64,000 bases of DNA from NCBI GenBank assembly GCA_964653045.1, contig CAZZBW010000001.1, positions 617-64,616 of the forward strand, read 5' to 3'. This stretch comes from an uncultured Pseudomonadales bacterium. GTDB lineage: Bacteria; Patescibacteriota; Microgenomatia; UBA1400; PJMF01. Every line of letters begins with the position of its first letter. Position 1 is the first letter of the stretch. A program made the translations under genes and the position numbers. Under the pieces are notes generated by a model. It searched no databases. It saw nothing but the letters and a program-made list of their open reading frames with translations, and had not been told where the DNA came from. Shown piece by piece: positions 3,372 to 64,000 of this stretch.

Positions 3372-5457
3372 CATTCGATTCTGTTTGCTGAGAATCCGGA
3401 ATTACCACGTCATTGACCGGTGGAGTATTAACTAAATCAGCAGGTTGCGTTTCCAATTGTTGATTGGTAATCGAGTTTGTTGGTGTGGTGGCTGATTCTG
3501 GCGCGGTTTCCGCTGACTCTGACTTTGGTAGCGCATCAATCTCTTTCTGTAGCGCTTCAATCTCTTGGTTCAGCTTGATGAAATCTTCCGAGCCAGAGTC
3601 AACTAGAGCCAGAGTTTGTTGATAAGAAGTCATCGATTCTTCCAATCTTTTCAACTGTCTGAGCACAACTGCCAGGTTGTAGTGAGTGTTGGGATAATCT
3701 GGCTTGATATTAATTGTTTCAGATAGAACACCGACTGCTTGTTGAGCTTGCTCGGTAGCAACTAACACTCCACCCAGAGCAATTCTGAGATTGGGATCAG
3801 TGGGATAAGTTTGGATGGCATTGATGTACGCCTGAGTTGTCCACTGGGGCGCATCTTCAGCCAAGCCAATCATATTAGAGTAAATGTTGGCTAAGACTTG
3901 CCAGTTTTGCGAATCAAGCGGATCAAGAACCGTAGCTGCCGAGGCTTCTCGCACTGCCTGTTGCAGGAGCAGGTTGATCTGTTCCTTGTCCTCATCTGAT
4001 ACCTCGGCTTTATTGGCCAGGGCGCTGGCAATCAGCAGATTGGTAAATGCGTACGAGCGTCGATTAACATCAAGATAGGGATTGAGGGTGACCGCCCGTT
4101 GTTGCAGATCGTAAACCTGAGTTGCGTCATTGTTGACAGCAGCCAGATCAGCTTTGCGAAGCAGGATTAAGGGATAGAATCCACGATAAAGACCGTAAAA
4201 ACCCGCTGCTGTGCCGGCCAAAATAACTACACAGAGGAAGTAAACTGGCAGGCTGCTGTTTTTGGCTCTGCGGTCTTCGGTGAAAGCCTCATTGATTTGA
4301 TCTCCTTTAGATGAAGTCAAGCTAATGCTCATGCCACCAACGCTAAAACTGGGCAAGTGTTTTTTATCAATTGCTACTAGAGCTGCGAGCGTTACAGCCT
4401 GGAGGGTAATGATCACCAAGTTGGCAGGGAAGAAGAAGCTAATTATGATCGAAACCAAAATTGGTGCCAGAAGAGAAGACTCTTGTGATTTTTTGATCTG
4501 AGTCAGTGAAGTCCTCGCCACTCTATAGACCAACCATAGCCAGGCCGCAACACCCAAGATACCCATGGTAGTCAGAATAGTGAGGGGTTGATTATTGGCT
4601 GTACTGAATATTAGACTCCAATCTTCTGTACCGTTCACCCAAATTGGTTTGTATTGGCGGTAACTATTGGCATAACTTTCTGGACCAGCTCCAATCAGGG
4701 CAGTTCGTGGGGCCCTGAGGTTATCAAGAGAGATCGACCAGCTGGATAAGAAAGACTGATTCTTGAGTGGAGCTGGTCCAGCCTGGCGCATACTCCAGCC
4801 ATACAAACCAATGCCGATAATCAGCAACGGCATAATTATCGCGCTAAAAATTGAGATCTTCTTCTGTTTCCAGCTTTCCCAAGCTAGATAGCTGAGTCCG
4901 AGAATCGCAATTTGAAAGCTGATCCACACTCCACCAGCAAATGAGTAATTTAGCTCGGTGGGAAGACTCAGACCAAAAAGCTGATTGTATAGTTGAGCTG
5001 GGCCGAAGCCGATCATCTGGAAGGTACTGCCCAAGACATTGATCAAACCAACTATGGCAATTGTTTTACCTACTAATTTGTGGGCGTGAGCTGGCAAGAC
5101 CTGTGCACCCAGAAGTATGATCAAACCGAAGGCAATATACGCGCCTCCCCAGCCCAATAGGTTCTCCACGGGATAACTTGACGCCATTAGTGAAGAAACA
5201 AGACTTACTACCAACAAAGCCAGAACCGGCCAGAACCAGCGAGTGAAAACCAAATCGAGGCTCTTTTTCTGCCAAGATCGTACTCCATAGATGGCTACAA
5301 CTAATAAAGCGGACGCCATCAGCGCAAAAAGCTTGGTATCCTGGACAAAATTATTGGTGAGTGGCAGGTTGATTAAGCCAGTGGCGACAACCAGTCCAAG
5401 TATTAGCCAGAGGGCGATGTGATTTATTAAAGAGGAGTGATGGGTATTGTTGAACAT
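3322..5457 (-). CDS. Polytopic membrane protein, Wzy_C/O-antigen-ligase-like, with C-terminal TPR repeats and a P/T/S-rich tail; possible pilin O-oligosaccharyltransferase
   Basis: At least 10 predicted TM helices. C-terminal TPR-like region (YINAIQTYPTDPNLRIALGGVLV...YNLAVVLRQLKRLEES). Low-complexity PT-rich tail. Lies divergently adjacent to three pilin genes. The Wzy_C assignment rests on architecture only. Confidence 0.5.
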   Translation of the reverse strand: MFNNTHHSSLINHIALWLILGLVVATGLINLPLTNNFVQDTKLFALMASALLVVAIYGVRSWQKKSLDLVFTRWFWPVLALLVVSLVSSLMASSYPVENLLGWGGAYIAFGLIILLGAQVLPAHAHKLVGKTIAIVGLINVLGSTFQMIGFGPAQLYNQLFGLSLPTELNYSFAGGVWISFQIAILGLSYLAWESWKQKKISIFSAIIMPLLIIGIGLYGWSMRQAGPAPLKNQSFLSSWSISLDNLRAPRTALIGAGPESYANSYRQYKPIWVNGTEDWSLIFSTANNQPLTILTTMGILGVAAWLWLVYRVARTSLTQIKKSQESSLLAPILVSIIISFFFPANLVIITLQAVTLAALVAIDKKHLPSFSVGGMSISLTSSKGDQINEAFTEDRRAKNSSLPVYFLCVVILAGTAAGFYGLYRGFYPLILLRKADLAAVNNDATQVYDLQQRAVTLNPYLDVNRRSYAFTNLLIASALANKAEVSDEDKEQINLLLQQAVREASAATVLDPLDSQNWQVLANIYSNMIGLAEDAPQWTTQAYINAIQTYPTDPNLRIALGGVLVATEQAQQAVGVLSETINIKPDYPNTHYNLAVVLRQLKRLEESMTSYQQTLALVDSGSEDFIKLNQEIEALQKEIDALPKSESAETAPESATTPTNSITNQQLETQPADLVNTPPVNDVVIPDSQQTESNVTPSDTTTPEAPPVVE

Positions 5458-55307: not shown

Positions 55308-55311
55308 CTCG

Positions 55312-55383
55312 TGCCCCCGACAGGAATCGAACCTGTACCAACGGTTCCGGAAACCGTAATTCTATCCGTTGAACTACGGGGGC
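55312..55383 (-). tRNA. tRNA-Arg (anticodon CCG)
   Basis: Manual fold of the reverse complement. Acceptor GCCCCCG/CGGGGGC, D stem GTTC/GAAT, anticodon stem ACGGT/ACCGT with loop TTCCGGA, T arm ACAGG-TTCGATT-CCTGT, discriminator A. CCA is not encoded. Confidence 0.85.
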
Positions 55384-55529
55384 GGTGATCATGAGTTATT
55401 GTACATCATTGAGGTAGGCTTCTCGGCGTAACTGAGCTTGCCTATATCAAGTTGTTTTTGCTACACTGAAAGATGAAATAAATCCAGGATCTTCTTGGAA
55501 TTTGTTGTGTTGGGGTTAGATAAAAACTG

Positions 55530-58500
55530 ATGAAAAAGAGTCACTTGCCCACTAGCCTGATTAATCGAGTAATTACTTGGTTAGCTGTTTCTCTGGTGAT
55601 TGCAAGTATTGCTTTGGGGCAGGTAACAAATAGTGTAGTTTGGGCAGCTTCAGAATCGCAGACCAAGAGTGCGAGTGTAGTCAGCACGAATCCAGTGAAT
55701 GATGAAGCTGCCCCACAAGAAATCAGCGTTGAGCCAGTCGAAGTGGAAGTCAAAGCTCAGCCTTCGGCTTGGCAGAGATTATTGAAGTCAACCGGGATTC
55801 GTGCCAATTACCAGGGAATTAAGGCCGAGATCAGGAATAGTGAAGGCGAAAAAGTGGAGGATGTGGTGTCTGATGACTCCAACTCTGCCGATCAGTTTTT
55901 GTTTCATTTGGATCCAGCCAAACTAGAACTGGCTCCAGGCGAATATCAATTGGTTGTAGAGTACGCCGGCGAGGTGATTTATCAAGATTTTACTTACGGC
56001 GTGCTGGCGGTGAACGCCACCAAAGATGTGTACACATTGGGAGAGGCGGCCAGCCTGGAGCTGGCCGCCCTAGACAGTCACGGTACCACGCTGTGCAACG
56101 CCAACTTACTCCTCACCATTACTACTCCCGATGGGGGACAAACCAATCCAGAAGTGGTTAAATCTGGTGAGTGTGACGGAAATAATGTGACTGACGTGCC
56201 GGATTATTCGGCAGAATATGTACCTGAGCTTGAGGGCGAGTATCGCCTCAAGCTCCAAAACCTCGATCAAAATTTTGTGATCGAATCAAGTTTCCAAGTC
56301 GTAGCGGATCCTGAGTTAAGTATCGAGAGGTTGGGCCCGAGCAGAATATATCCAATGGCTAATTACTTGATGAATATCAATGTGTACTCAAAAAATGGCT
56401 TTAGTGGAACGGTGAGTGAAAGTGTGCCCAGCTCGTTTGCTATCGAAAGCGATGGTGCGTCAAAAAGCCAGCAGGGTGAACTGACGATTATCTCTTGGCC
56501 GGTTGAGATTGCTCCAGGAGAAACTGCGGAGCTGGCGTATCTTTTTGACGCACCGGACGTCTCTCCCCAATTTTATTCTCTTGGCTCGATTCAGTTATTA
56601 GATAACAAAAACCCAATTTATACCGAATCTCGCCAGTGGCAAGTTGCCTCAGATGATACTTCCACCAAGGCAATCGGCTCCGAGTCTGGCACCAACTGGT
56701 CAGCCTCAGGTGGCTGTACCTTCGGCACCAACTGCGTGACTACTTCTAACAATCAGTACGCTACTTTTAATGGCACTGGTCGGAATACTTTGTACCTTAA
56801 AAACATTGGTTTTTCAATTCCTGCGGGATCGACAATTGATGGCATTGTGATTGGATTCGAGGGATACGGGTCAGGCACTACTGCCGCAAGAAGAACCATA
56901 AGGTTGAATGTAACAAAAAATGGTACCAATGCAACTGATGCCACTTGGAATACCCAAGCTTTTACGACTCGAGATGCTAGTTATACCACAGGGACTAGCA
57001 CTGATCTTTGGGGCACGACTTGGACAGTCAGTGAAATTAATTCGACCAACTTTGGGGTAATGATTTCAGATAATGATACTACTGCCCGCGCTTTATACAT
57101 TGATCATGTTCAGATTACGGTGTACTACACACCACCAGTGACAATTAATGTGTCTGGTTCAACCAATGTCGCTAGTGGGACAGTTAAATGGGCGAAAAAT
57201 GGAGTGGCACAGGCTGAAACAGCTACGATCGGTTCTGGGACGTGGTCACTAACTGCTACTGGTTTAGCCCAAAACGATATCGTCACTACTTGGATTGATG
57301 CGGCAGCTGAGACCGATGAGAGTACCGCGATCACCAAGTATGACGGCACTGGTGATATCACTGGCATGGTGCTCAATGCCAATGTTCTGTCTGTAGGTAG
57401 TGTCGATAATCCTAGTCTGGTACTATCAAATTTCGCCTACACCAATACCAATAATGAAAATGTGATGCACAGCTACGGTAGTAGTACGCTGACGGTCGAT
57501 GGGGGTAATTCTTACTCAACAGAAAAACTTGACGTGCTGAGTGGAGCTACGCTGACGGTGGGTATCAGCGAGATAGTCAATACTCATCATCTGTCCATCA
57601 ACGGCACGCTGACTTCTGGTGGCAGTAGTACTTACAATGTTTATGGTAATTGGGAGAACAACGCGACTTTCACTGCCTCGACCAGCACGGTAGATTTCAA
57701 GCTTGCCTCAGGGACGCAGACGCTCAAGAGCGGTGGGACTGGGGCAGGCAAGTTGTTTAATAATCTGACACACTCTGGTGCCGGCACGCTCCAGCTGAAT
57801 ACCAATGCCATTGACGTTGATGGTAACTTTGCTCAAACCGCCGGCACCTTCGACGCCAATAGTTTCAGCCAGAACTTTGCTGGGGATTTTTCTTTGTCGA
57901 GTGGAACCGTGTTTACCAAAGGTGGAACCACCACGTTTGACGGTTCGGTAGCTAAAGCTATCACTGATAACACCACTGGTCAGCAAGATCTGGGTGCGGT
58001 GGTGATTGATGGGACGAGTAAAAGTATTTCTTCTTCAACAAATATCAAGCTGACCACTTTGTCGATCGGAGCGGATGATACGTTGGATATTTCTTCTGAT
58101 ACTTTGGCTATTTTGGGAAGCGGTACGCCGTTTACCAAAACGGGTGCGTTTACCACTACTGGTTCGACCGTGGTATATGCTGGGACTACGGCTACCAACG
58201 TTACCACCACGGCTTACAACAATCTGACGTTCACTCCCGCTTCAGGCACGCCGACATACACTTTACAAGCCAGTTTGACCGCCGGCAATGCGATTGCGGG
58301 CAACTTAACAATCAGTAGTGGTGCAACTTTAAGCACTTCAGCTTCAAACTTCAATCTAGAAGTTAAGGGCAATTGGGCGAATGCCGGCAGTTTTACTTCA
58401 GGTACCAACACCGTGACTTTTTCGGCAACCGCTACTGGCAAAACGATCGTGACCGGTGGGACCGGTACTGGTCAGGATTTTAATCATGTAGTGTTTAACA

Positions 58501-61500
58501 GTTCTTCCGGAGGATGGACAATCCAGACTAATGATATGAAAGTGGCTGGTAATTTGACCATTACCGATGTCAATGATTGGACGCTGCAAACGGGGAGGAT
58601 TCTTGAGGTAAATGGCCAGTACACCATTACTGGCAATGAAACGGCCGCTACCACTTGGACTGGTTCGACGCTTTATCTTAATAACGGCACTAGCACTAGT
58701 TACACTATTAACTCGATTAAAACTGCCTCAGCTGAGACCTATGGCACGTTGCAAATCGGTGCTAACACTGATGTACGGATGTGGAACTCAACCGCCACGA
58801 CCTTTACTGTGGATGCGACTGGTTCTTTATACTCGCAAAATCATGCCAATACGGCTGGTAGCCTGTATATTTGGGGTGATTACAACGTGGTGGGCACAGA
58901 TTACTGGAGTTACGCGACTGATTTTGACAGTGTGGCGTTGGGAGGATCTTCCCGCCAGGCAAATGTCAGAATTGATCCAGCTGGTGGAGTGACCGTGGGC
59001 AGTGGTAAAACACTAAATGCCATTGGCACATCGAGTTTTCGCACCACAGTGGATCGGCAGGGCGCCAGCAATGGTTACGGGCTAACCATTGCTGGCGGCA
59101 CAATTAACTTCAATTACGTCAACTTTGACCGGCTAGACGGTAACAAGGGTTTGGATATTCAAACAGGTTCAACCGTCACCAGTCTCGATTATACCAAGTA
59201 CGACAACTTGGTTGGAACGGCTGGTACCGATGATGCGTTTATTACTTTGAGTACTTCAATTGTTGGCACTGGCACTAAAATTTTGACCGGTTTACAGTTT
59301 GATAATACTGGGACTGGGGCAGAGTTCAATGTCAATTTGAGCGGAACGGCGGTCACCGGTTACTGGGATTTTGAGTCCAGCTCTGGGACATTCGATGGCG
59401 AGAGCTATGATGGCGCCAGCGGCATGGCCGAGGCCGATCCAGGCACACTGCGTTGGGATGACTCGGCCCAGCCGCCGCTGGCGCCCACCGACCTTTTAGC
59501 CGAGGGAGCGACCAACCCAACCGGCGTGATCGATCTGACTCCAGAGATGTCGGCGATTTATCGCGATAACAACGTTGGTGATACTGCTAATAAGTACCAG
59601 ATCCAAGTCGACGACAACTCAGATTTCACCTCAGTCTTTTGGGACTCTGGCGCGAGTGGTACCTCCATGACCAACTGTACAGTCAACAACCGCTGTCAAG
59701 ATATCTCATACACTGGTTCAGTGTTAACAAGAGGAATAACGTATTACTGGCGAATTAAGTATTGGGATATTGCAGGATTGGAGGGCGATTTTTCTTCAGA
59801 GTCAGCCACTTTCAAGCTCAATCAATTACCTAACACGCCGACCAACACTGCGCCAACTGATGGATTGGGCAATCAATCTTTGACTCCGACACTCCAGTCT
59901 TCAGCTTTCTCTGACTCAGATGTGGGTGATACCCACTCCGCCTCCCAGTGGCAGGTATCGACTGCTAGTGGGGCAGGATTTGATGCTGGCATTGTTTGGG
60001 ATTCAGGCACAGACACGACCAACAAAACATCCCGAGTAGTTGGTACCACGCTTTCCACTGGTACAACTTACTATTGGCGAGTCAGGCACCAGGATGATAA
60101 AACCGAGTGGTCGAGTTACTCGACAATTACTAGTTTTACCACCTATTACCCACCCTCTGCTCCCACTGATTTATTGGCAGAGGGAGCGACTAATCCCACG
60201 GGAATCATTGATTTGACCCCAGAATTATCAGCCATCTATCGTGATTCCGACGCAGGTGATACTGCTAATAAGTACCAGATCCAAGTCGATGATAATTCAG
60301 ATTTTACCTCGGTCTTTTGGGATTCTGGTGCGAGTGGTACTTCCATGACCAACTGTACCGTCAATAATCGTTGTCAAGATATTTCATACTCAGGATCAGC
60401 TCTTACCAGAGGCACAACTTATTACTGGAGAATTAAATTCTGGGATGTGGGTGGGGCAGAGGGGGCATTCTCTTCCGTCACAGCTACTTTCAAGATTAAT
60501 CAAATACCTAATACTCCAACTAACACTTCTCCAACGAATGGGGCAGGTAATCAATCACTGACTCCGACACTCCAGTCTTCAGCTTTCTCTGACTCAGATG
60601 TAGGAGATACCCATGCTGCTTCTCAATGGCAGGTATCTACCGCCACTGGGGCTGGCTTTGATGCCGGCATCGTTTGGGATTCGGGCACAGACACGACCAA
60701 CAAAACATCCCGAGTGGTTGGCACCACGCTCTCTACTGGTACTATTTACTATTGGCGGGTTAGACACCAAGATAACCGAACTGAGTGGTCGAGTTACTCA
60801 ACTATTACTAGTTTTACCACTAGCTATCCACCCAACACCCCGACTAATACCTCGCCAACCAATGGTGCGATCAACCAATCACTCACTCCAACGCTCCAGT
60901 CTTCTGCATTTTCCGATCCTGATGCTGGGGCGACTCATGCCGCTTCTCAATGGCAGGTATCTACCGCCAGTGGGGCTGGATTTGATGCCGCGATTGTTTG
61001 GGATTCAGGTACGGACACGACCAACAAAACATCTAGGGTAGTTGGTACCACGCTCAATCCCGGAGTGACGTATTATTGGAGAGTTCGCCATCGGGATGAT
61101 CGGAGTGTTTGGTCCAGCTACTCTGTTATTACCAGCTTTACAACTTATTATGCTCCCTCTGCTCCCACGGACCTCTTAGCCGAGGGAGCAACTAACCCCA
61201 ACGGCTTAATTGATCTTACCCCTGAGTTATCTGCGATCTATCGTGACTCAGATGCGGGTGATACCGCCAATAAATATAGAATCCAAGTGGATGATAACTC
61301 AGATTTCTCTTCAGTGTTCTGGGACACAGGAGTCAGTGGTACATCTATGACCAACTGTACCGTCAATACTCGTTGTCAAGATATTTCATACTCAGGATCA
61401 GCTTTAACTAGAGGTACAGTGTATTACTGGCGAATTAAATTCTGGGATGTGGGTGGGGCAGAGGGAGTATTCTCCAGTGAATCGGCTACTTTCAAACTCA

Positions 61501-62279
61501 ATCAATTGCCAAATACTCCAACCAACACTTCACCAACTAATGGCGGTACAGAGCAAAGCCAAAATCCGACTTTGCAATCATCGGCTTTTTCCGATTCCGA
61601 CGTTGGGGACACGCACTCCAACTCCCAGTGGCAGGTATCTACCGCCACTGGAGCTGGATTCGATGCAGCCATTGTCTGGGATTCGGGGGTCACCGCCACC
61701 AACAAGACCTCTGTGGTAGTCAACAGTACCAACGGTACTTTCCAGGGTAGTTTAAGTGGGCAAACACAACTAGCCTTAAACAGCACTTACTATTGGCGGG
61801 TTAGACACCAGGATGATAAAACCGAGTGGTCCAGCTACTCAACTATTACCAGTTTCACCACCATTGTGTCTAACCCGCCTACAGCTCCCACTATTCCTTG
61901 GTGTGAGGGCCAAACCAATCCAACTAATGTAACTAGCGCCACTCCGAGCTTTTCTGCCATACACAACGATCCTGACGGTGATGCAGCAAATTTTTATCAA
62001 ATTGAGGTAAATACTAACTCAAGCTTCAGTGGGACAGTGATGTGGAATTCTACCAAAACTTCTATGAGCAATCTCGCTTCTGGCGTGCGCTCTGCCGATT
62101 TTGTTTATGCTGGTTCTGGTTTGCAGTTAAGTACCACTTACTATTGGCGCATCCGATTTTGGGATGTGAACGGCTATGAAGGTGCAGTCTCCGCCACCCA
62201 ACAATTCACAACGGCGAGCTTCGTCAGCGGCAACTTCTTTTTTGAGGGTTTGCAAATGGAAGGTTTAAATATCAACTAG
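55530..62279 (+). CDS. Large (2249 aa) secreted adhesin-like protein: signal peptide, beta-helix-like T/G-rich region, then 9 alternating FN3-like modules
   Basis: N-terminal signal/TM (ITWLAVSLVIASIALG). Two module types alternate. A: PSAPTDLLAEGATNPTG.IDLTPE...YYWRIK.WD. B: PNTPTNTSPTNG..QSLTPTLQSSAFSD.D.GDTH.ASQWQVST...YYWRVRHQD. The W/YYW pattern is typical of fibronectin-III-like folds. Confidence 0.8.
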   Translation: MKKSHLPTSLINRVITWLAVSLVIASIALGQVTNSVVWAASESQTKSASVVSTNPVNDEAAPQEISVEPVEVEVKAQPSAWQRLLKSTGIRANYQGIKAEIRNSEGEKVEDVVSDDSNSADQFLFHLDPAKLELAPGEYQLVVEYAGEVIYQDFTYGVLAVNATKDVYTLGEAASLELAALDSHGTTLCNANLLLTITTPDGGQTNPEVVKSGECDGNNVTDVPDYSAEYVPELEGEYRLKLQNLDQNFVIESSFQVVADPELSIERLGPSRIYPMANYLMNINVYSKNGFSGTVSESVPSSFAIESDGASKSQQGELTIISWPVEIAPGETAELAYLFDAPDVSPQFYSLGSIQLLDNKNPIYTESRQWQVASDDTSTKAIGSESGTNWSASGGCTFGTNCVTTSNNQYATFNGTGRNTLYLKNIGFSIPAGSTIDGIVIGFEGYGSGTTAARRTIRLNVTKNGTNATDATWNTQAFTTRDASYTTGTSTDLWGTTWTVSEINSTNFGVMISDNDTTARALYIDHVQITVYYTPPVTINVSGSTNVASGTVKWAKNGVAQAETATIGSGTWSLTATGLAQNDIVTTWIDAAAETDESTAITKYDGTGDITGMVLNANVLSVGSVDNPSLVLSNFAYTNTNNENVMHSYGSSTLTVDGGNSYSTEKLDVLSGATLTVGISEIVNTHHLSINGTLTSGGSSTYNVYGNWENNATFTASTSTVDFKLASGTQTLKSGGTGAGKLFNNLTHSGAGTLQLNTNAIDVDGNFAQTAGTFDANSFSQNFAGDFSLSSGTVFTKGGTTTFDGSVAKAITDNTTGQQDLGAVVIDGTSKSISSSTNIKLTTLSIGADDTLDISSDTLAILGSGTPFTKTGAFTTTGSTVVYAGTTATNVTTTAYNNLTFTPASGTPTYTLQASLTAGNAIAGNLTISSGATLSTSASNFNLEVKGNWANAGSFTSGTNTVTFSATATGKTIVTGGTGTGQDFNHVVFNSSSGGWTIQTNDMKVAGNLTITDVNDWTLQTGRILEVNGQYTITGNETAATTWTGSTLYLNNGTSTSYTINSIKTASAETYGTLQIGANTDVRMWNSTATTFTVDATGSLYSQNHANTAGSLYIWGDYNVVGTDYWSYATDFDSVALGGSSRQANVRIDPAGGVTVGSGKTLNAIGTSSFRTTVDRQGASNGYGLTIAGGTINFNYVNFDRLDGNKGLDIQTGSTVTSLDYTKYDNLVGTAGTDDAFITLSTSIVGTGTKILTGLQFDNTGTGAEFNVNLSGTAVTGYWDFESSSGTFDGESYDGASGMAEADPGTLRWDDSAQPPLAPTDLLAEGATNPTGVIDLTPEMSAIYRDNNVGDTANKYQIQVDDNSDFTSVFWDSGASGTSMTNCTVNNRCQDISYTGSVLTRGITYYWRIKYWDIAGLEGDFSSESATFKLNQLPNTPTNTAPTDGLGNQSLTPTLQSSAFSDSDVGDTHSASQWQVSTASGAGFDAGIVWDSGTDTTNKTSRVVGTTLSTGTTYYWRVRHQDDKTEWSSYSTITSFTTYYPPSAPTDLLAEGATNPTGIIDLTPELSAIYRDSDAGDTANKYQIQVDDNSDFTSVFWDSGASGTSMTNCTVNNRCQDISYSGSALTRGTTYYWRIKFWDVGGAEGAFSSVTATFKINQIPNTPTNTSPTNGAGNQSLTPTLQSSAFSDSDVGDTHAASQWQVSTATGAGFDAGIVWDSGTDTTNKTSRVVGTTLSTGTIYYWRVRHQDNRTEWSSYSTITSFTTSYPPNTPTNTSPTNGAINQSLTPTLQSSAFSDPDAGATHAASQWQVSTASGAGFDAAIVWDSGTDTTNKTSRVVGTTLNPGVTYYWRVRHRDDRSVWSSYSVITSFTTYYAPSAPTDLLAEGATNPNGLIDLTPELSAIYRDSDAGDTANKYRIQVDDNSDFSSVFWDTGVSGTSMTNCTVNTRCQDISYSGSALTRGTVYYWRIKFWDVGGAEGVFSSESATFKLNQLPNTPTNTSPTNGGTEQSQNPTLQSSAFSDSDVGDTHSNSQWQVSTATGAGFDAAIVWDSGVTATNKTSVVVNSTNGTFQGSLSGQTQLALNSTYYWRVRHQDDKTEWSSYSTITSFTTIVSNPPTAPTIPWCEGQTNPTNVTSATPSFSAIHNDPDGDAANFYQIEVNTNSSFSGTVMWNSTKTSMSNLASGVRSADFVYAGSGLQLSTTYYWRIRFWDVNGYEGAVSATQQFTTASFVSGNFFFEGLQMEGLNIN

Positions 62280-62342
62280 GGTGGGTGAGTCTGTGTGACA
62301 GACGTATTGACTTAGTACATAGTACACAGTATACTATATACT

Positions 62343-63332
62343 ATGAAAACAACTACTAGATCTGATATTCTGACTTTCATCAAAAAACGAGGTCAAGTTT
62401 CTCCCCATCAGTTGAAACAACACTTAGGCCTAGGTGGTCCAGCTATTCACCGGCAACTAAGAAAATTGGAGGCTGAGCTCTCAATTGTTAAGATTGGCAA
62501 AGCACCGAAAGTAGTATATGTGGCGCGTGAGGGTAGTCGAGTTATGCCAGCCATATCCACTTTGCCACCTGAGTTGGCAGAGGTGATCGAGGCGAGATAC
62601 ACTTTCGTTAATCCCGATGGAGTGATGCTAGAGGGAGTGGAGGGATTTGTCCATTGGGTGCAGAAAACTGGTCAATCTGCGAATCTAACAGCCTTGGCAC
62701 AAGAGTTTGTTAAAGTTCGCCAAGAAGCTGACAGTTGGTACCAAGGTAAATCTTGGATTGATGCGACTACTAAACTTAGTCAGACATTCCCTAATACTTT
62801 GATTGATCAAGTGGCCTACGCCGATTTTTATGCATTGCCCAAGTTTGGTAAAACCAAGTTGGGTGCCTATACGCTTCACGCCAAGGTTTCCCAGAATCAG
62901 TCATTAATGGTGAAAATCGCAACTCAAGTTAGTCCGATCATTCAGGAACTGATTGCTGGTTGGAAAATTCAAGCGGTGGCCTACATTCCGCACTCTATTC
63001 CCAGAATATTGCCACTTTTACCGGTTATCAAGCAAGAGCTGGCGCTCGCCTTGCCTTTGATTAAAGTAGAAAAATTATACGCAGGAGATATTAGAGTGGC
63101 ACAAAAAAGTTTGTCTAAGTTGAGTGATCGAGTGGAGAATGCCAGGCGCACAATGTTTGTCACGAGTGAGATACCTTGGAAGCGAGTGTTACTAATTGAT
63201 GACGCGGTGGGATCGGGAGCAACGCTTAATGAAGTGGCGGTCAAACTTAAGAGCGAAAAACAAGTTGAGTTTGTCGGTGGATTTGCGATAGTGGGGAGTT
63301 ACAAAGGATTCGAAGTGATTAATGAAGTGTAA
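62343..63332 (+). CDS. Winged-HTH plus phosphoribosyltransferase(PRTase)-type domain protein (PurR/ComF-like fold)
   Basis: N-terminal DeoR-like wHTH (DILTFIKKRGQVSPHQLKQHLGLGGPAIHRQLRKLE). C-terminal PRPP-binding-like motif VLLIDDAVGSGATLNEVAV. Confidence 0.6.
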   Translation: MKTTTRSDILTFIKKRGQVSPHQLKQHLGLGGPAIHRQLRKLEAELSIVKIGKAPKVVYVAREGSRVMPAISTLPPELAEVIEARYTFVNPDGVMLEGVEGFVHWVQKTGQSANLTALAQEFVKVRQEADSWYQGKSWIDATTKLSQTFPNTLIDQVAYADFYALPKFGKTKLGAYTLHAKVSQNQSLMVKIATQVSPIIQELIAGWKIQAVAYIPHSIPRILPLLPVIKQELALALPLIKVEKLYAGDIRVAQKSLSKLSDRVENARRTMFVTSEIPWKRVLLIDDAVGSGATLNEVAVKLKSEKQVEFVGGFAIVGSYKGFEVINEV

Positions 63333-63333
63333 G

Positions 63334-63351
63334 GTGCCCTCACCAGGACTC
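63334..63351. repeat. 18-nt direct repeat of the 3' end of tRNA-Arg(CCT), from T loop to acceptor end plus 2 nt of trailer (gtgccctcaccaggactc); second copy is within the tRNA at 63396-63413
   Basis: Exact 18/18 match. The copy lies 44 nt beyond the tRNA 3' end and immediately after the stop codon of the 62343-63332 gene. The intervening segment contains the hairpin CCCGC-TTA-GCGGG. Confidence 0.8.
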
Positions 63352-63396
63352 CCCGCTTAGCGGGGTAAACTTCTCGTCTTGGGTTCGTGCACTTTG

Positions 63397-63468
63397 TGCC
63401 CTCACCAGGACTCGAACCTGGATCGGAGGTTTAGGAAACCTCTGTTCTATCCCTTGAACTATGAGAGC
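63397..63468 (-). tRNA. tRNA-Arg (anticodon CCT)
   Basis: Manual fold. Acceptor GCTCTCA/TGAGGGC (one G-U pair), D stem GTTC/GAAC, anticodon stem GAGGT/ACCTC with loop TTCCTAA, T arm CCAGG-TTCGAGT-CCTGG, discriminator A. Confidence 0.85.
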
Positions 63469-63474
63469 GAGGGA

Positions 63475-63496
63475 GCTCTGTCGGGGTGGCTGGACT
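63475..63496. repeat. 22-nt direct repeat of the 3' end of tRNA-Pro(CGG) (gctctgtcggggtggctggact); second copy is within the tRNA at 63558-63579
   Basis: Exact 22/22 match including 6 nt of 3' trailer. The copy lies 6 nt upstream of the 5' end of tRNA-Arg(CCT). The intervening 62 nt contain the hairpin TCCCGAT-[gaagcttaagcgaa]-ATCGGGA. Confidence 0.8.
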
Positions 63497-63563
63497 TCCC
63501 GATTTCGCTTAAGCTTCATCGGGATAAACTTCTCGCCAGCCAACTCGACTTCACTTCGCTCTG

Positions 63564-63637
63564 TCGGGGTGGCTGGACTCGAACCAGTGACCTCGTCGTC
63601 CCGAACGACGCACTCTAGCCATCTGAGCTACACCCCG
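63564..63637 (-). tRNA. tRNA-Pro (anticodon CGG)
   Basis: Manual fold. Acceptor CGGGGTG/CACCCCG with the C1-G72 pair typical of bacterial tRNA-Pro. D stem GCTC/GAGT, anticodon stem CGTCG/CGACG with loop TTCGGGA, T loop TTCGAGT (one A-C mismatch in the T stem), discriminator A. Confidence 0.8.
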
Positions 63638-63664
63638 TTTGTATTTCGTTAATGTTAATTTCGT

Positions 63665-63772
63665 TTAAACCAGTGACCTCCCCGCCGAAGCTTTAAGCGT
63701 AGGCGGAGCACTCTAGCCACCTACCTACATTGCTACGCAATTTTGGCGGGTAAATCTGAGCTACACCCCGTT
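63665..63772 (-). pseudogene. Degenerate tRNA-Pro-like copy: acceptor 5' strand and D arm with a 35-nt D-loop insertion, anticodon arm replaced by a GC hairpin, 3' acceptor strand missing
   Basis: Reverse complement reads CGGGGTG-TA-GCTC-AGA[35 nt]TGGCTA-GAGT-GC[TCCGCC..GGCGGG hairpin]GAGGTCACTGGTT. It shares the 5' half and variable/T-stem with tRNA-Pro at 63564-63637. It cannot fold into a cloverleaf. Confidence 0.45.
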
Positions 63773-64000
63773 TACCCGTCTAAGTTTTATGAAGCGTTAA
63801 CGTCAATAATTCTTGGCGAGTCAGTGCTATTCTAACTCAATTGCGTACAAATTGAGTGGCACATCTGGGCTGAAGCCGGTCAGGACCAGCAAGCGACTGC
63901 CAGTTGGCCAAGGATAAACAAATTGTTCAAAAAATGGTCCCGAGTAAATCGTGTTGGTATTACTGCTGTCATACTCAATGACTTTAATCTGGTTTTCACT

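Follow-up and report, generated by a model that had tools for sequence, protein, structure and literature searches.

Compact RtT-like trailer elements behind tRNA genes of a Patescibacteria contig and of many other bacterial genomes

The DNA considered here, hereafter the window, is a stretch of 64,000 nucleotides (nt) from contig CAZZBW010000001.1 (assembly GCA_964653045.1, positions 617 to 64,616 of the forward strand), which was deposited as an uncultured Pseudomonadales bacterium and has a GTDB lineage in the Patescibacteriota; the homologues of the gene flanking the locus of interest are from Patescibacteria. Near the end of the window, the minus-strand genes for tRNA-Pro(CGG) and tRNA-Arg(CCT) are each followed by a short insert and then by an exact copy of the tRNA's own 3' part. 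This arrangement belongs to a widespread, uncatalogued family of units behind tRNA genes, which is a compact variant of the RtT kind of element (Rfam family RF00391) known from E. coli. The anatomy of the units, their covarying fold, their tRNA-matched helix, their instability among relatives, and the plan that they share with RtT are shown by the analysis. With moderate confidence, the units are interpreted as RtT-like elements that are co-transcribed with the tRNA as its trailer and that change in copy number through recombination between the repeats.

Organization of the tRNA locus

Both tRNA genes are called by ARAGORN and by Rfam, and a repeat finder returns two exact direct repeats, one of 18 nt for tRNA-Arg (63334–63351 equal to 63396–63413) and one of 22 nt for tRNA-Pro (63475–63496 equal to 63558–63579). 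Each repeat runs from the middle of the T-loop to the acceptor end and continues into the trailer, by one base for Arg and six for Pro; on the tRNA strand the copies start at G57/A58 and begin AGTCC. Because trailer bases are part of the repeats, the copying took place on DNA, and mature tRNA was not its template. By our own arithmetic, the expected chance of an 18-mer repeat within 1 kb is ∼1e-5. The inserts between the repeats measure 44 nt (Arg) and 61 nt (Pro) and have in common, on the minus strand, the 16-mer CGAGAAGTTTAYCCCG (63361–63376 and 63520–63535, 94% identity), these being its sole exact occurrences in the 64 kb, with a GC-stem hairpin directly after each. The features of the two units are listed below from tRNA-Pro onward in the direction of transcription; loci in other assemblies carry numbers with the prefix L, and alignment A1 and the covariance model R1 are described further on.

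63563–63637, minus strand: tRNA-Pro(CGG) gene, without encoded CCA (ARAGORN; Rfam RF00005, 55.7 bits).
63558–63579, minus strand: proximal 22-nt repeat, from T-loop A58 of tRNA-Pro to the discriminator plus six trailer bases, AGTCCAGCCACCCCGACAGAGC (repeat family D1, 100%).
63550–63557, minus strand: 8-nt linker of the Pro unit, GAAGTGAA (read from the sequence).
63536–63549, minus strand: 14-nt complement of the T-stem-3'/acceptor-3' strand of the tRNA in the Pro unit, GTCGAGTTGGCTGG, which is the 5' strand of helix P1 (inverted repeats I5 and I6; minimum free energy (MFE) fold).
63525–63535, minus strand: single-stranded junction of the Pro unit, CGAGAAGTTTA (repeat family D5; invariant columns 10–20 of alignment A1).
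63497–63524, minus strand: hairpin P2 of the Pro unit, TCCCGAT-GAAGCTTAAGCGAA-ATCGGGA (MFE fold; covarying helix 2 in A1; match to R1).
63475–63496, minus strand: distal 22-nt copy of the tRNA-Pro 3' part, which is the 3' strand of P1 (repeat family D1, 100%).
63469–63474, minus strand: 6-nt gap from the Pro copy to the 5' end of tRNA-Arg, too short for a promoter (sequence; no promoter-like site in 63200–64000).
63396–63468, minus strand: tRNA-Arg(CCT) gene, whose last 18 nt, including one trailer base, are the proximal repeat 63396–63413 (ARAGORN; Rfam, 62.7 bits; repeat family D4).
63377–63395, minus strand: linker AAA and degenerate complement of the tRNA 3' strand in the Arg unit, GTGCACGAACCCAAGA (sequence; partly paired in folds; homologous position in L010 and L168).
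63366–63376, minus strand: junction of the Arg unit, CGAGAAGTTTA (repeat family D5).
63351–63365, minus strand: hairpin P2 of the Arg unit, CCCCG-CTAAG-CGGGG, whose final G doubles as the first base of the copy (fold; match to R1).
63334–63351, minus strand: distal copy (18 nt) of the 3' part of tRNA-Arg, separated by 1 nt from the convergent stop codon (repeat family D4, 100%).

The Pro copy thus ends 6 nt before the 5' end of tRNA-Arg (63469–63474), and the Arg copy begins 1 nt past the TAA stop codon of a convergent open reading frame (ORF) of 329 aa (62343–63332) encoding a winged helix-turn-helix phosphoribosyltransferase (PRTase). An earlier, sequence-only reading of the locus had described just this arrangement, namely a trailer and an exact copy of its own 3' end behind each tRNA, a motif and GC hairpin common to both trailers, and the positions of the copies next to tRNA-Arg and the PRTase stop, and the present analysis bears it out on all three counts. 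An independent Logan contig (L001, from SRR8925802) has the identical Arg copy, hairpin, and trailer and ends inside the repeat region, so that the Arg part is not an assembly artefact.

A family of units behind tRNA genes

The 16-mer was searched in a 596-Gb genome collection, one genome per species, which gave at least 119 loci; ∼550 chance matches to a 16-mer are expected in 596 Gb by our own arithmetic, and matches without tRNA context, many of them single ones within genes, were discarded. At least 64 tRNA genes, of 24 anticodon types and 14 amino acids, share their strand with a motif that lies 8–107 nt (median 45.5) downstream and leads into a hairpin, behind which the tail of the same tRNA is repeated from A58. 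The earlier suggestion of a miniature element family was therefore correct: the combination of motif and hairpin, for which a search beyond the locus had been proposed, is absent from the rest of the 64 kb but recurs behind these tRNA genes in many genomes, and is thus neither unique to this spot nor without related elements, and close relatives differ in its presence or absence with exact empty sites.

On the tRNA strand, a family unit comprises a linker, a complement of the tRNA tail, a junction, a hairpin of the form YCCCG...CGGGR, and the copy of the cognate tRNA, which starts at T-loop A58 and runs through the 3' end. The conserved motif of the family, CGAGAAGUUUA, stands after the complement and before the hairpin, and the junction consensus is CGAGAAG-YYUR; some units have an optional linker or terminator before the complement. 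Units are 44–100 nt long, and tandem arrays of them are common. The carriers are mostly Bacteroidota, including cultured isolates of Indibacter (I. alkaliphilus LW1), Salinimicrobium (S. catena CGMCC 1.6101 and S. sediminis), and Phaeodactylibacter (P. luteus); the others are labeled Patescibacteria, Chlorobiota, Synechococcus, Armatimonadota, Spirochaeta, Gammaproteobacteria, and in one case "archaeon", these being labels of metagenome-assembled genomes (MAGs), some of which are perhaps mis-binned. The hairpin subtype tracks taxonomy and not tRNA identity.

A scan of the 64-kb window with R1 returned the two tRNA-linked copies, the Pro unit at 63484–63544 (51.5 bits, E 2e-11) and the Arg unit at 63338–63385 (46.9 bits, E 4e-10), and none elsewhere, so that no unit was found in the window away from tRNA genes; in the family as a whole, units were seen only behind tRNA genes. 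Variants found elsewhere with R1 keep CGAGAAG, and their next four bases vary. As a negative control, the 16-mer has 37 matches in viral contigs, none with the tRNA architecture; these lie in apparent long coding stretches and are therefore counted as chance. Rfam searched at permissive E-values in the window (E ≤ 10) and in eight other loci (E ≤ 1) returned only tRNA, plus RNase P in one locus, and literature searches with motif strings and concept terms returned nothing on this element. Hammerhead, hairpin, twister, and pistol ribozymes and k-turns were compared with the unit and rejected as its identity, since there is no convincing likeness and no Rfam match.

Secondary structure and covariation

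In the unit, the complement pairs with the tRNA copy to form helix P1, which adds one pair with base 60 to the T-stem, and P1 and hairpin P2 flank the conserved 11-nt single-stranded junction. The complement of the Pro unit (63536–63549) is 86% complementary both to the tRNA 3' end and to its copy (inverted repeats I5 and I6) and is paired in the MFE fold, which has a free energy of −29.7 kcal/mol (z = −3.9) with P1 formed; folding the RNA, a check proposed in the earlier reading, thus yields the helix between complement and copy.

Alignment A1 comprises 33 sequences, and R1 is the covariance model built from it; junction columns 10–20 are invariant in A1 but were fixed by the search pattern. 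Both helices covary. The covariation score of the two-helix structure is 0.328, compared with 0.165 in shuffles, none of 500 of which reach it, and with at most 0.17 in slid controls. The pair 9–55, which is the T-stem extension to base 60, is always formed (AU in 18 sequences, GC in 9, GU in 6), the pair 21–52 that closes P2 is UA in 23, UG in 9, and CG in 1, and both sides of the inner P2 pair 27–46 are changed in 14 sequences; P2 of L168 is compensated (CCCAGCC/GGCUGG). The junction-closing pairs include G-U and never A-C, which points to the tRNA-sense strand as the folded one, as do the tandem G-A pairs of the Flavobacteriales hairpin subtype.

Comparison with RtT

In E. coli K-12, the 178-bp rttR repeats of tyrT/tyrV end in AATCCTTCCCCCACCACCA, a 19-nt tail of tRNA-Tyr from A58. 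Within the repeat, GGGGAAGGA pairs with UCCUUCCCC, and exactly this helix is in the RF00391 consensus. The E. coli helix is followed directly by UGAGAAGCUU, to be compared with CGAGAAGYYU in the window family, and the RF00391 consensus reads GgGaaGGAUGAGAAcCUU...AUCCuuCcC, to be compared with GGR-CGAGAAGUUUA. The likeness extends to position and plan. Both elements immediately follow a tRNA gene at its 3' side, share its strand, and form tandem repeats; one unit makes up the tyrT-tyrV spacer, as the Pro unit does between tRNA-Pro and tRNA-Arg; in both, the unit ends in a copy of the tRNA tail from T-loop A58 that is paired with an upstream complement; and YGAGAAGYUU comes immediately after that complement in both. 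The differences are that RtT units are 178 nt long with a multi-helix interior, whereas those of the window family are 44–100 nt long with one variable hairpin; that the window family has no tpr-like ORF and the window tRNAs no encoded CCA; and that RtT occurs in Enterobacteria and Pasteurellaceae, whereas the window family is in other phyla (Patescibacteria, Bacteroidota, Chlorobiota, and others).

RtT was first observed as an RNA released from the tyrT transcript, and RtT RNAs are expressed beside Asn and Lys tRNA genes in Actinobacillus (PMC4986893). It has been linked to the starvation response (PMC4986893; 10.1101/2024.07.17.603846), and its mode of action is still described as unknown (10.1101/2024.07.17.603846).

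Other known systems resemble the units in single respects. In the repetitive extragenic palindrome (REP) and bacterial interspersed mosaic element (BIME) type of repeat, the likeness is in the hairpin, whose stem TCCCGA(T)...(A)TCGGGA is the stem of the palindrome TCCCGATAGCYATCGGGA discussed below, whereas the CGAGAAGYYUR junction, the tRNA-derived helix, and the restriction to sites behind tRNA genes are additional in the window family. As in tRNA minihelices and viral tRNA-like 3' structures, P1 together with the single-stranded acceptor tail is predicted to imitate the top half of the cognate tRNA, although in the unit the 11-nt junction and hairpin replace the T-loop and the 5' strand usually covers the acceptor in part. 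Identification as miniature inverted-repeat transposable elements was rejected: the inverted repeat is tRNA-derived and differs by tRNA, the duplications are 12–22 nt or longer and variable, and the 64 kb hold only the two tRNA-linked copies.

Presence, absence, and decay in relatives

The closest relative (L002–L008; PRTase 86% identical) has tRNA-Arg directly at the PRTase stop codon, TAA-T-GTGCCCTCACCAGGACTCGAACC, which is an exact empty site with a 62-nt difference, so that the distal Arg copy of the window sits where L002 has tRNA-Arg itself. The tRNA-Pro gene of L002 is 2 kb away, behind an ABC-transporter gene, and has a decayed Pro unit with the same linker start, without CGAGAAGTTTA, and with a 12-nt copy; R1 failed to recognize this trailer. 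Among relatives that are ∼70% identical, L009 has the empty site, L168 one unit, and L010 at least two units of 98 nt with an extra internal hairpin, the same native trailer following all three sites, and relatives at 60% identity have none of the units. The exact empty sites fit gain and loss alike, because recombination between direct repeats would also produce them.

Proposed mechanism

In the reading of the units as RtT-like trailers, the unit would be transcribed together with its tRNA. For the Pro unit this is required by the 6 nt that separate it from tRNA-Arg and by the lack of a promoter-like site, from which co-transcription is inferred. The unit RNA would then fold into an imitation of the acceptor/T-arm top half of the tRNA with an enlarged T-loop. 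The top half is the part of a tRNA that RNase P, RNase Z, and the CCA-adding enzyme recognize, and the enzymes that mature the flanking tRNAs may excise the unit, by analogy with rtT RNA, which leaves the tyrT transcript in E. coli. The unit is unstable at the DNA level owing to its two identical tRNA-tail repeats: recombination between them would delete it exactly and leave the empty sites of relatives, and unequal exchange would multiply it into arrays. One option of the earlier reading, a structured trailer or processing element in which the 3' end of the tRNA is copied, fits best, given the RtT architecture and a Pro unit that is the whole spacer between the two tRNA genes. Mobility of the unit is possible.

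Several observations weigh against this interpretation. The decayed copies and units in L002 (Pro), L058, L093, and L041 indicate that many units are not under selection. The models of the two families miss each other: RF00391 (threshold 45 bits) has no match in the window between 62800 and 64000 (E ≤ 10) or in the eight loci (E ≤ 1), although the same tool finds four RtT copies in E. coli at 133–138 bits, and R1 scores just 3 bits on the E. coli RtT region. The link to RtT thus rests on architecture and a 10-nt motif and not on statistical homology, and for want of mutual statistical detection the window units are termed RtT-like and not members of RF00391. The opposite strand of the window units folds at least as well, so that the window alone gives no strand; many P1 helices have just 3 bp, which is generic, others having 9–14 bp; and the long P1 helices show no clear excess of G-T (14) over A-C (8). 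One hairpin subtype stands at six different tRNA species within Flavobacteriales, from which it follows that the core spreads, or is homogenized, within a lineage, and spread between tRNA genes implies in turn that recombination between the repeats alone is insufficient. Finally, many Bacteroidota loci have, by eye, an apparent stem-plus-T-run terminator between tRNA and unit, and transcription of those units would require read-through.

Alternative explanations

A possible, if doubtful, alternative that overlaps with the trailer interpretation is a non-autonomous mobile cassette that inserts at T-loop position 57/58 of the cognate tRNA gene. It would either bring a replacement tRNA tail or make a long target duplication of variable length, the hairpin junction would be the structure recognized by the enzyme, and the mover, encoded elsewhere, would be either a recombinase whose substrate is a folded single strand or a reverse transcriptase primed at the nicked target. 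Such a cassette accounts for presence and absence with exact empty sites in close relatives, for the junction at A58 in all tRNA types, and for duplicated lengths that vary from 12, 18, and 22 nt up to whole trailers. It also agrees with the arrays, in which decayed units are farthest from the tRNA (distal copies are decayed in L058, and degenerate units are farther from the tRNA in L093) and adjacent units have different trailers and apparent terminators of their own (L101 and L093), with a hairpin subtype that follows taxonomy rather than tRNA identity, with upstream 5'-fragment arrays that mirror the downstream arrays in four loci, and with a related palindrome dispersed in at least 120 metagenome loci. 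However, no enzyme candidate was found, there are no copies away from tRNA genes in the window and none in viral contigs, and deletion between the repeats explains the empty sites equally well. In addition, upstream units within a locus share derived features, which makes them copies of one another and not independent relics, and the complement often matches its target over 9 bp, a match that a moving element could not bring to a new tRNA.

A broader proposal, unlikely in our estimation, would unite the window units, the ∼60 related loci, and E. coli RtT in a single pan-bacterial class of tRNA-gene-specific elements that mimic the tRNA top half. These would spread by a dedicated mechanism at T-loop 57/58 that relies on an enzyme and on either a folded single strand or an RNA intermediate. 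The variable arm would be made from hairpin-seeking palindromes, and the mirror-image 5'-fragment arrays would be a second product.

It is very improbable that the units are scars of integrase-carrying elements such as prophages or islands that have lost their interior, with attL and attR joined. Direct repeats of a tRNA 3' segment, which measure 18 and 22 nt in the window, are what classically marks an att site, repeated integration is known to leave stacked partial tRNAs (10.1101/2020.12.28.424599; PMC9897764), an attB in the T-loop is known for phage Ms6 (PMC1762012), and the region between PRTase and tRNA-Arg holds toxin-antitoxin cargo in relatives. Elements that integrate into tRNA genes (P4-like islands, Ms6 with its T-loop attB, tycheposon stacks) are similar to the units in their direct repeats from the T-loop to the 3' end, in having the intact tRNA and the displaced tail at opposite ends, and in the exact empty sites of relatives, and tycheposon stacking (10.1101/2020.12.28.424599) in its decayed distal copies, its older units farther from the tRNA, and its differing trailers. 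The window family differs in that the repeats enclose neither an integrase nor sizeable cargo at any of the loci examined, and in its conserved structured insert at the T-loop junction, with the same core at 24 tRNA types. In ∼60 units, with tRNA-to-motif intervals of 8–107 nt, no integrase or obvious remnant of one was seen, the ORFs not having been scanned against protein families; the exceptions in length are three longer intervals, namely L044 (an unrelated ∼1.3-kb insertion), L107 (∼125-aa ORF), and L064 (∼1.2 kb of uncharacterized sequence between relic copies of the tRNA tail). Moreover, the conserved insert sits within the would-be crossover T-loop, and a remnant would need the same covarying two-helix fold and 11-nt junction across many phyla and 24 tRNA types. 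Since random deletion remnants would not retain a covarying two-helix structure, the att reading is unsupported.

At L044 (minus strand, ∼1340–2750) the insertion of ∼1.3 kb, which has two consecutive ORFs and by eye resembles an IS3-type insertion sequence, is inside the first unit of a tRNA-Met array of at least three units. At L107 (4400–4960, a Patescibacteria MAG) the unit behind tRNA-Arg(TCG) encloses ∼560 nt with the ∼125-aa ORF before the complement and motif; no other unit seen encloses a clear ORF.

Almost no credence is given to the view that the GC hairpins are merely intrinsic terminators or RNA 3'-end stabilizers of a tRNA operon and the repeats incidental, for although the units stand at tRNA gene 3' ends and the Arg unit closes the operon against a convergent gene, there is no terminator-like or promoter-like site in 63200–64000 and no U tract after either hairpin, the two tRNA genes on either side of the Pro hairpin have to be co-transcribed, many loci have an apparent separate stem-plus-T-run terminator besides the unit, and this view accounts neither for the exact 18- and 22-nt repeats nor for the conserved junction. 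Of the interpretations in the sequence-only reading, the element family is correct and the structured trailer fits best, whereas the joined ends of decayed tyrosine-integrase elements are not supported, given the lack of an integrase in ∼60 loci and the covarying fold with its conserved junction, and neither is the terminator, given the missing U tract.

Upstream tRNA fragments and a dispersed palindrome

On the other side of tRNA-Pro, fragments of its 5' part are interleaved with related hairpins in a block that the earlier reading had missed:

63668–63786, minus strand: block of upstream tRNA-Pro 5' fragments at 63754–63773, 63708–63722, and 63668–63680 (repeat families D2, D6, and D7).
63739–63754 and 63771–63786: inverted repeat TTTACCCG (inverted repeats I2, I3, and I11 for the block).
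63681–63706: hairpin of the unit kind in inverted orientation, CCGCCGAAGCTTTAAGCGTAGGCGG on the plus strand, in place of the anticodon arm (inverted repeats I2, I3, and I11 for the block).

The fragments, of 20, 15, and 13 nt, are in tRNA order and correspond to nt 1–17 plus leader, to ∼nt 17–31, and to ∼nt 45–57; a 35-nt insert that starts with TTTACCCG separates upstream fragments. The block is either a pseudo-tRNA or a mirror-image counterpart of the downstream unit, and L002 and L003 are without it. Arrays of tRNA 5' fragments upstream of an intact tRNA were also seen at L041 (minus strand, ∼4360–4570), L086 (plus strand, 1250–1530), and L089 (minus strand, ∼90–230), the fragments each having a TCCCGA...TCGGGA hairpin in the D-arm region. 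The counts of upstream to downstream units are 2:2 (L041), 2:1–2 (L086), and 2:2 (L089), a mirror of the 3'-copy arrays. Units within an array share derived features and deletions, which makes the upstream units copies of each other. A nested insertion of cassettes comprising whole tRNAs was rejected as a general mechanism, given that an upstream match exists in 9 of 62 loci, mostly as full tandem tRNA copies, and that derived features are shared.

At least 120 metagenome loci (L179–L258 and further) contain the perfect palindrome TCCCGATAGCYATCGGGA; among the matches listed, 11 of 125 are within 300 nt of a tRNA, and most are far from tRNAs. Its flanks are often mutually complementary, as at the tip of longer inverted repeats, and it is also in the D-loops of tRNA-Ala and tRNA-Phe fragments (L189 and L236). 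It is possibly a hairpin-seeking dispersed repeat.

Neighboring genes in the window and in relatives

In relatives, a gene for a 649-aa ABC transporter lies between tRNA-Pro and tRNA-Arg (L002 2372–4285); it is absent from the window (63469–63562), where a 13-nt exact match to the transporter's last codons, inverted, is at 63814–63826 (blastn E = 3, possibly chance). In L009, a remnant of tRNA-Arg(CCT) from the D-arm to the anticodon arm (3979–4030) is joined to the PRTase gene 3' end at a shared TCCGA, resembling a microhomology deletion, and a second, intact tRNA-Arg(CCT) is 1.5 kb away, past toxin-antitoxin genes. The interval from PRTase to tRNA-Arg(CCT) is a variable hotspot in L009, L010, L168, and L177, with genes of toxin-antitoxin type (BrnT/CopG, PIN, DUF6364, AbiEii, YafQ). 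The gap between tRNA-Arg(CCG) and PRTase is ∼80–150 nt in relatives; in the window, 55311–62343 instead holds an ORF of 2249 aa (55530–62279) that is rich in internal repeats and whose product appears to be secreted or surface-located, and the tRNA-Arg(CCG) of the window has no trailer element.

Implications

RtT has featured in work on E. coli from the sequencing of the tyrT locus onward, without its role having become clear. The more compact relative, of 45–100 nt, present at many tRNA types in several phyla, cultured Bacteroidota among them, and marked by the conserved junction YGAGAAGYYU and a tRNA-matched helix, would offer comparative and genetic handles on such trailers, whose possible roles are those of a tRNA-end mimic, a processing by-product, or selfish DNA. 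For annotation, the units yield partial tRNA matches and can pass for integration scars when genomic islands are called, and they break short-read assemblies, as in L001, which ends in the repeat region, and in L010, where a run of N lies inside the element array (∼5113–5212, assembly GCA_964521215.1). If the proposed pan-bacterial class were true, the units would represent more than an RNA motif, namely a mobile or self-propagating element of a new kind.

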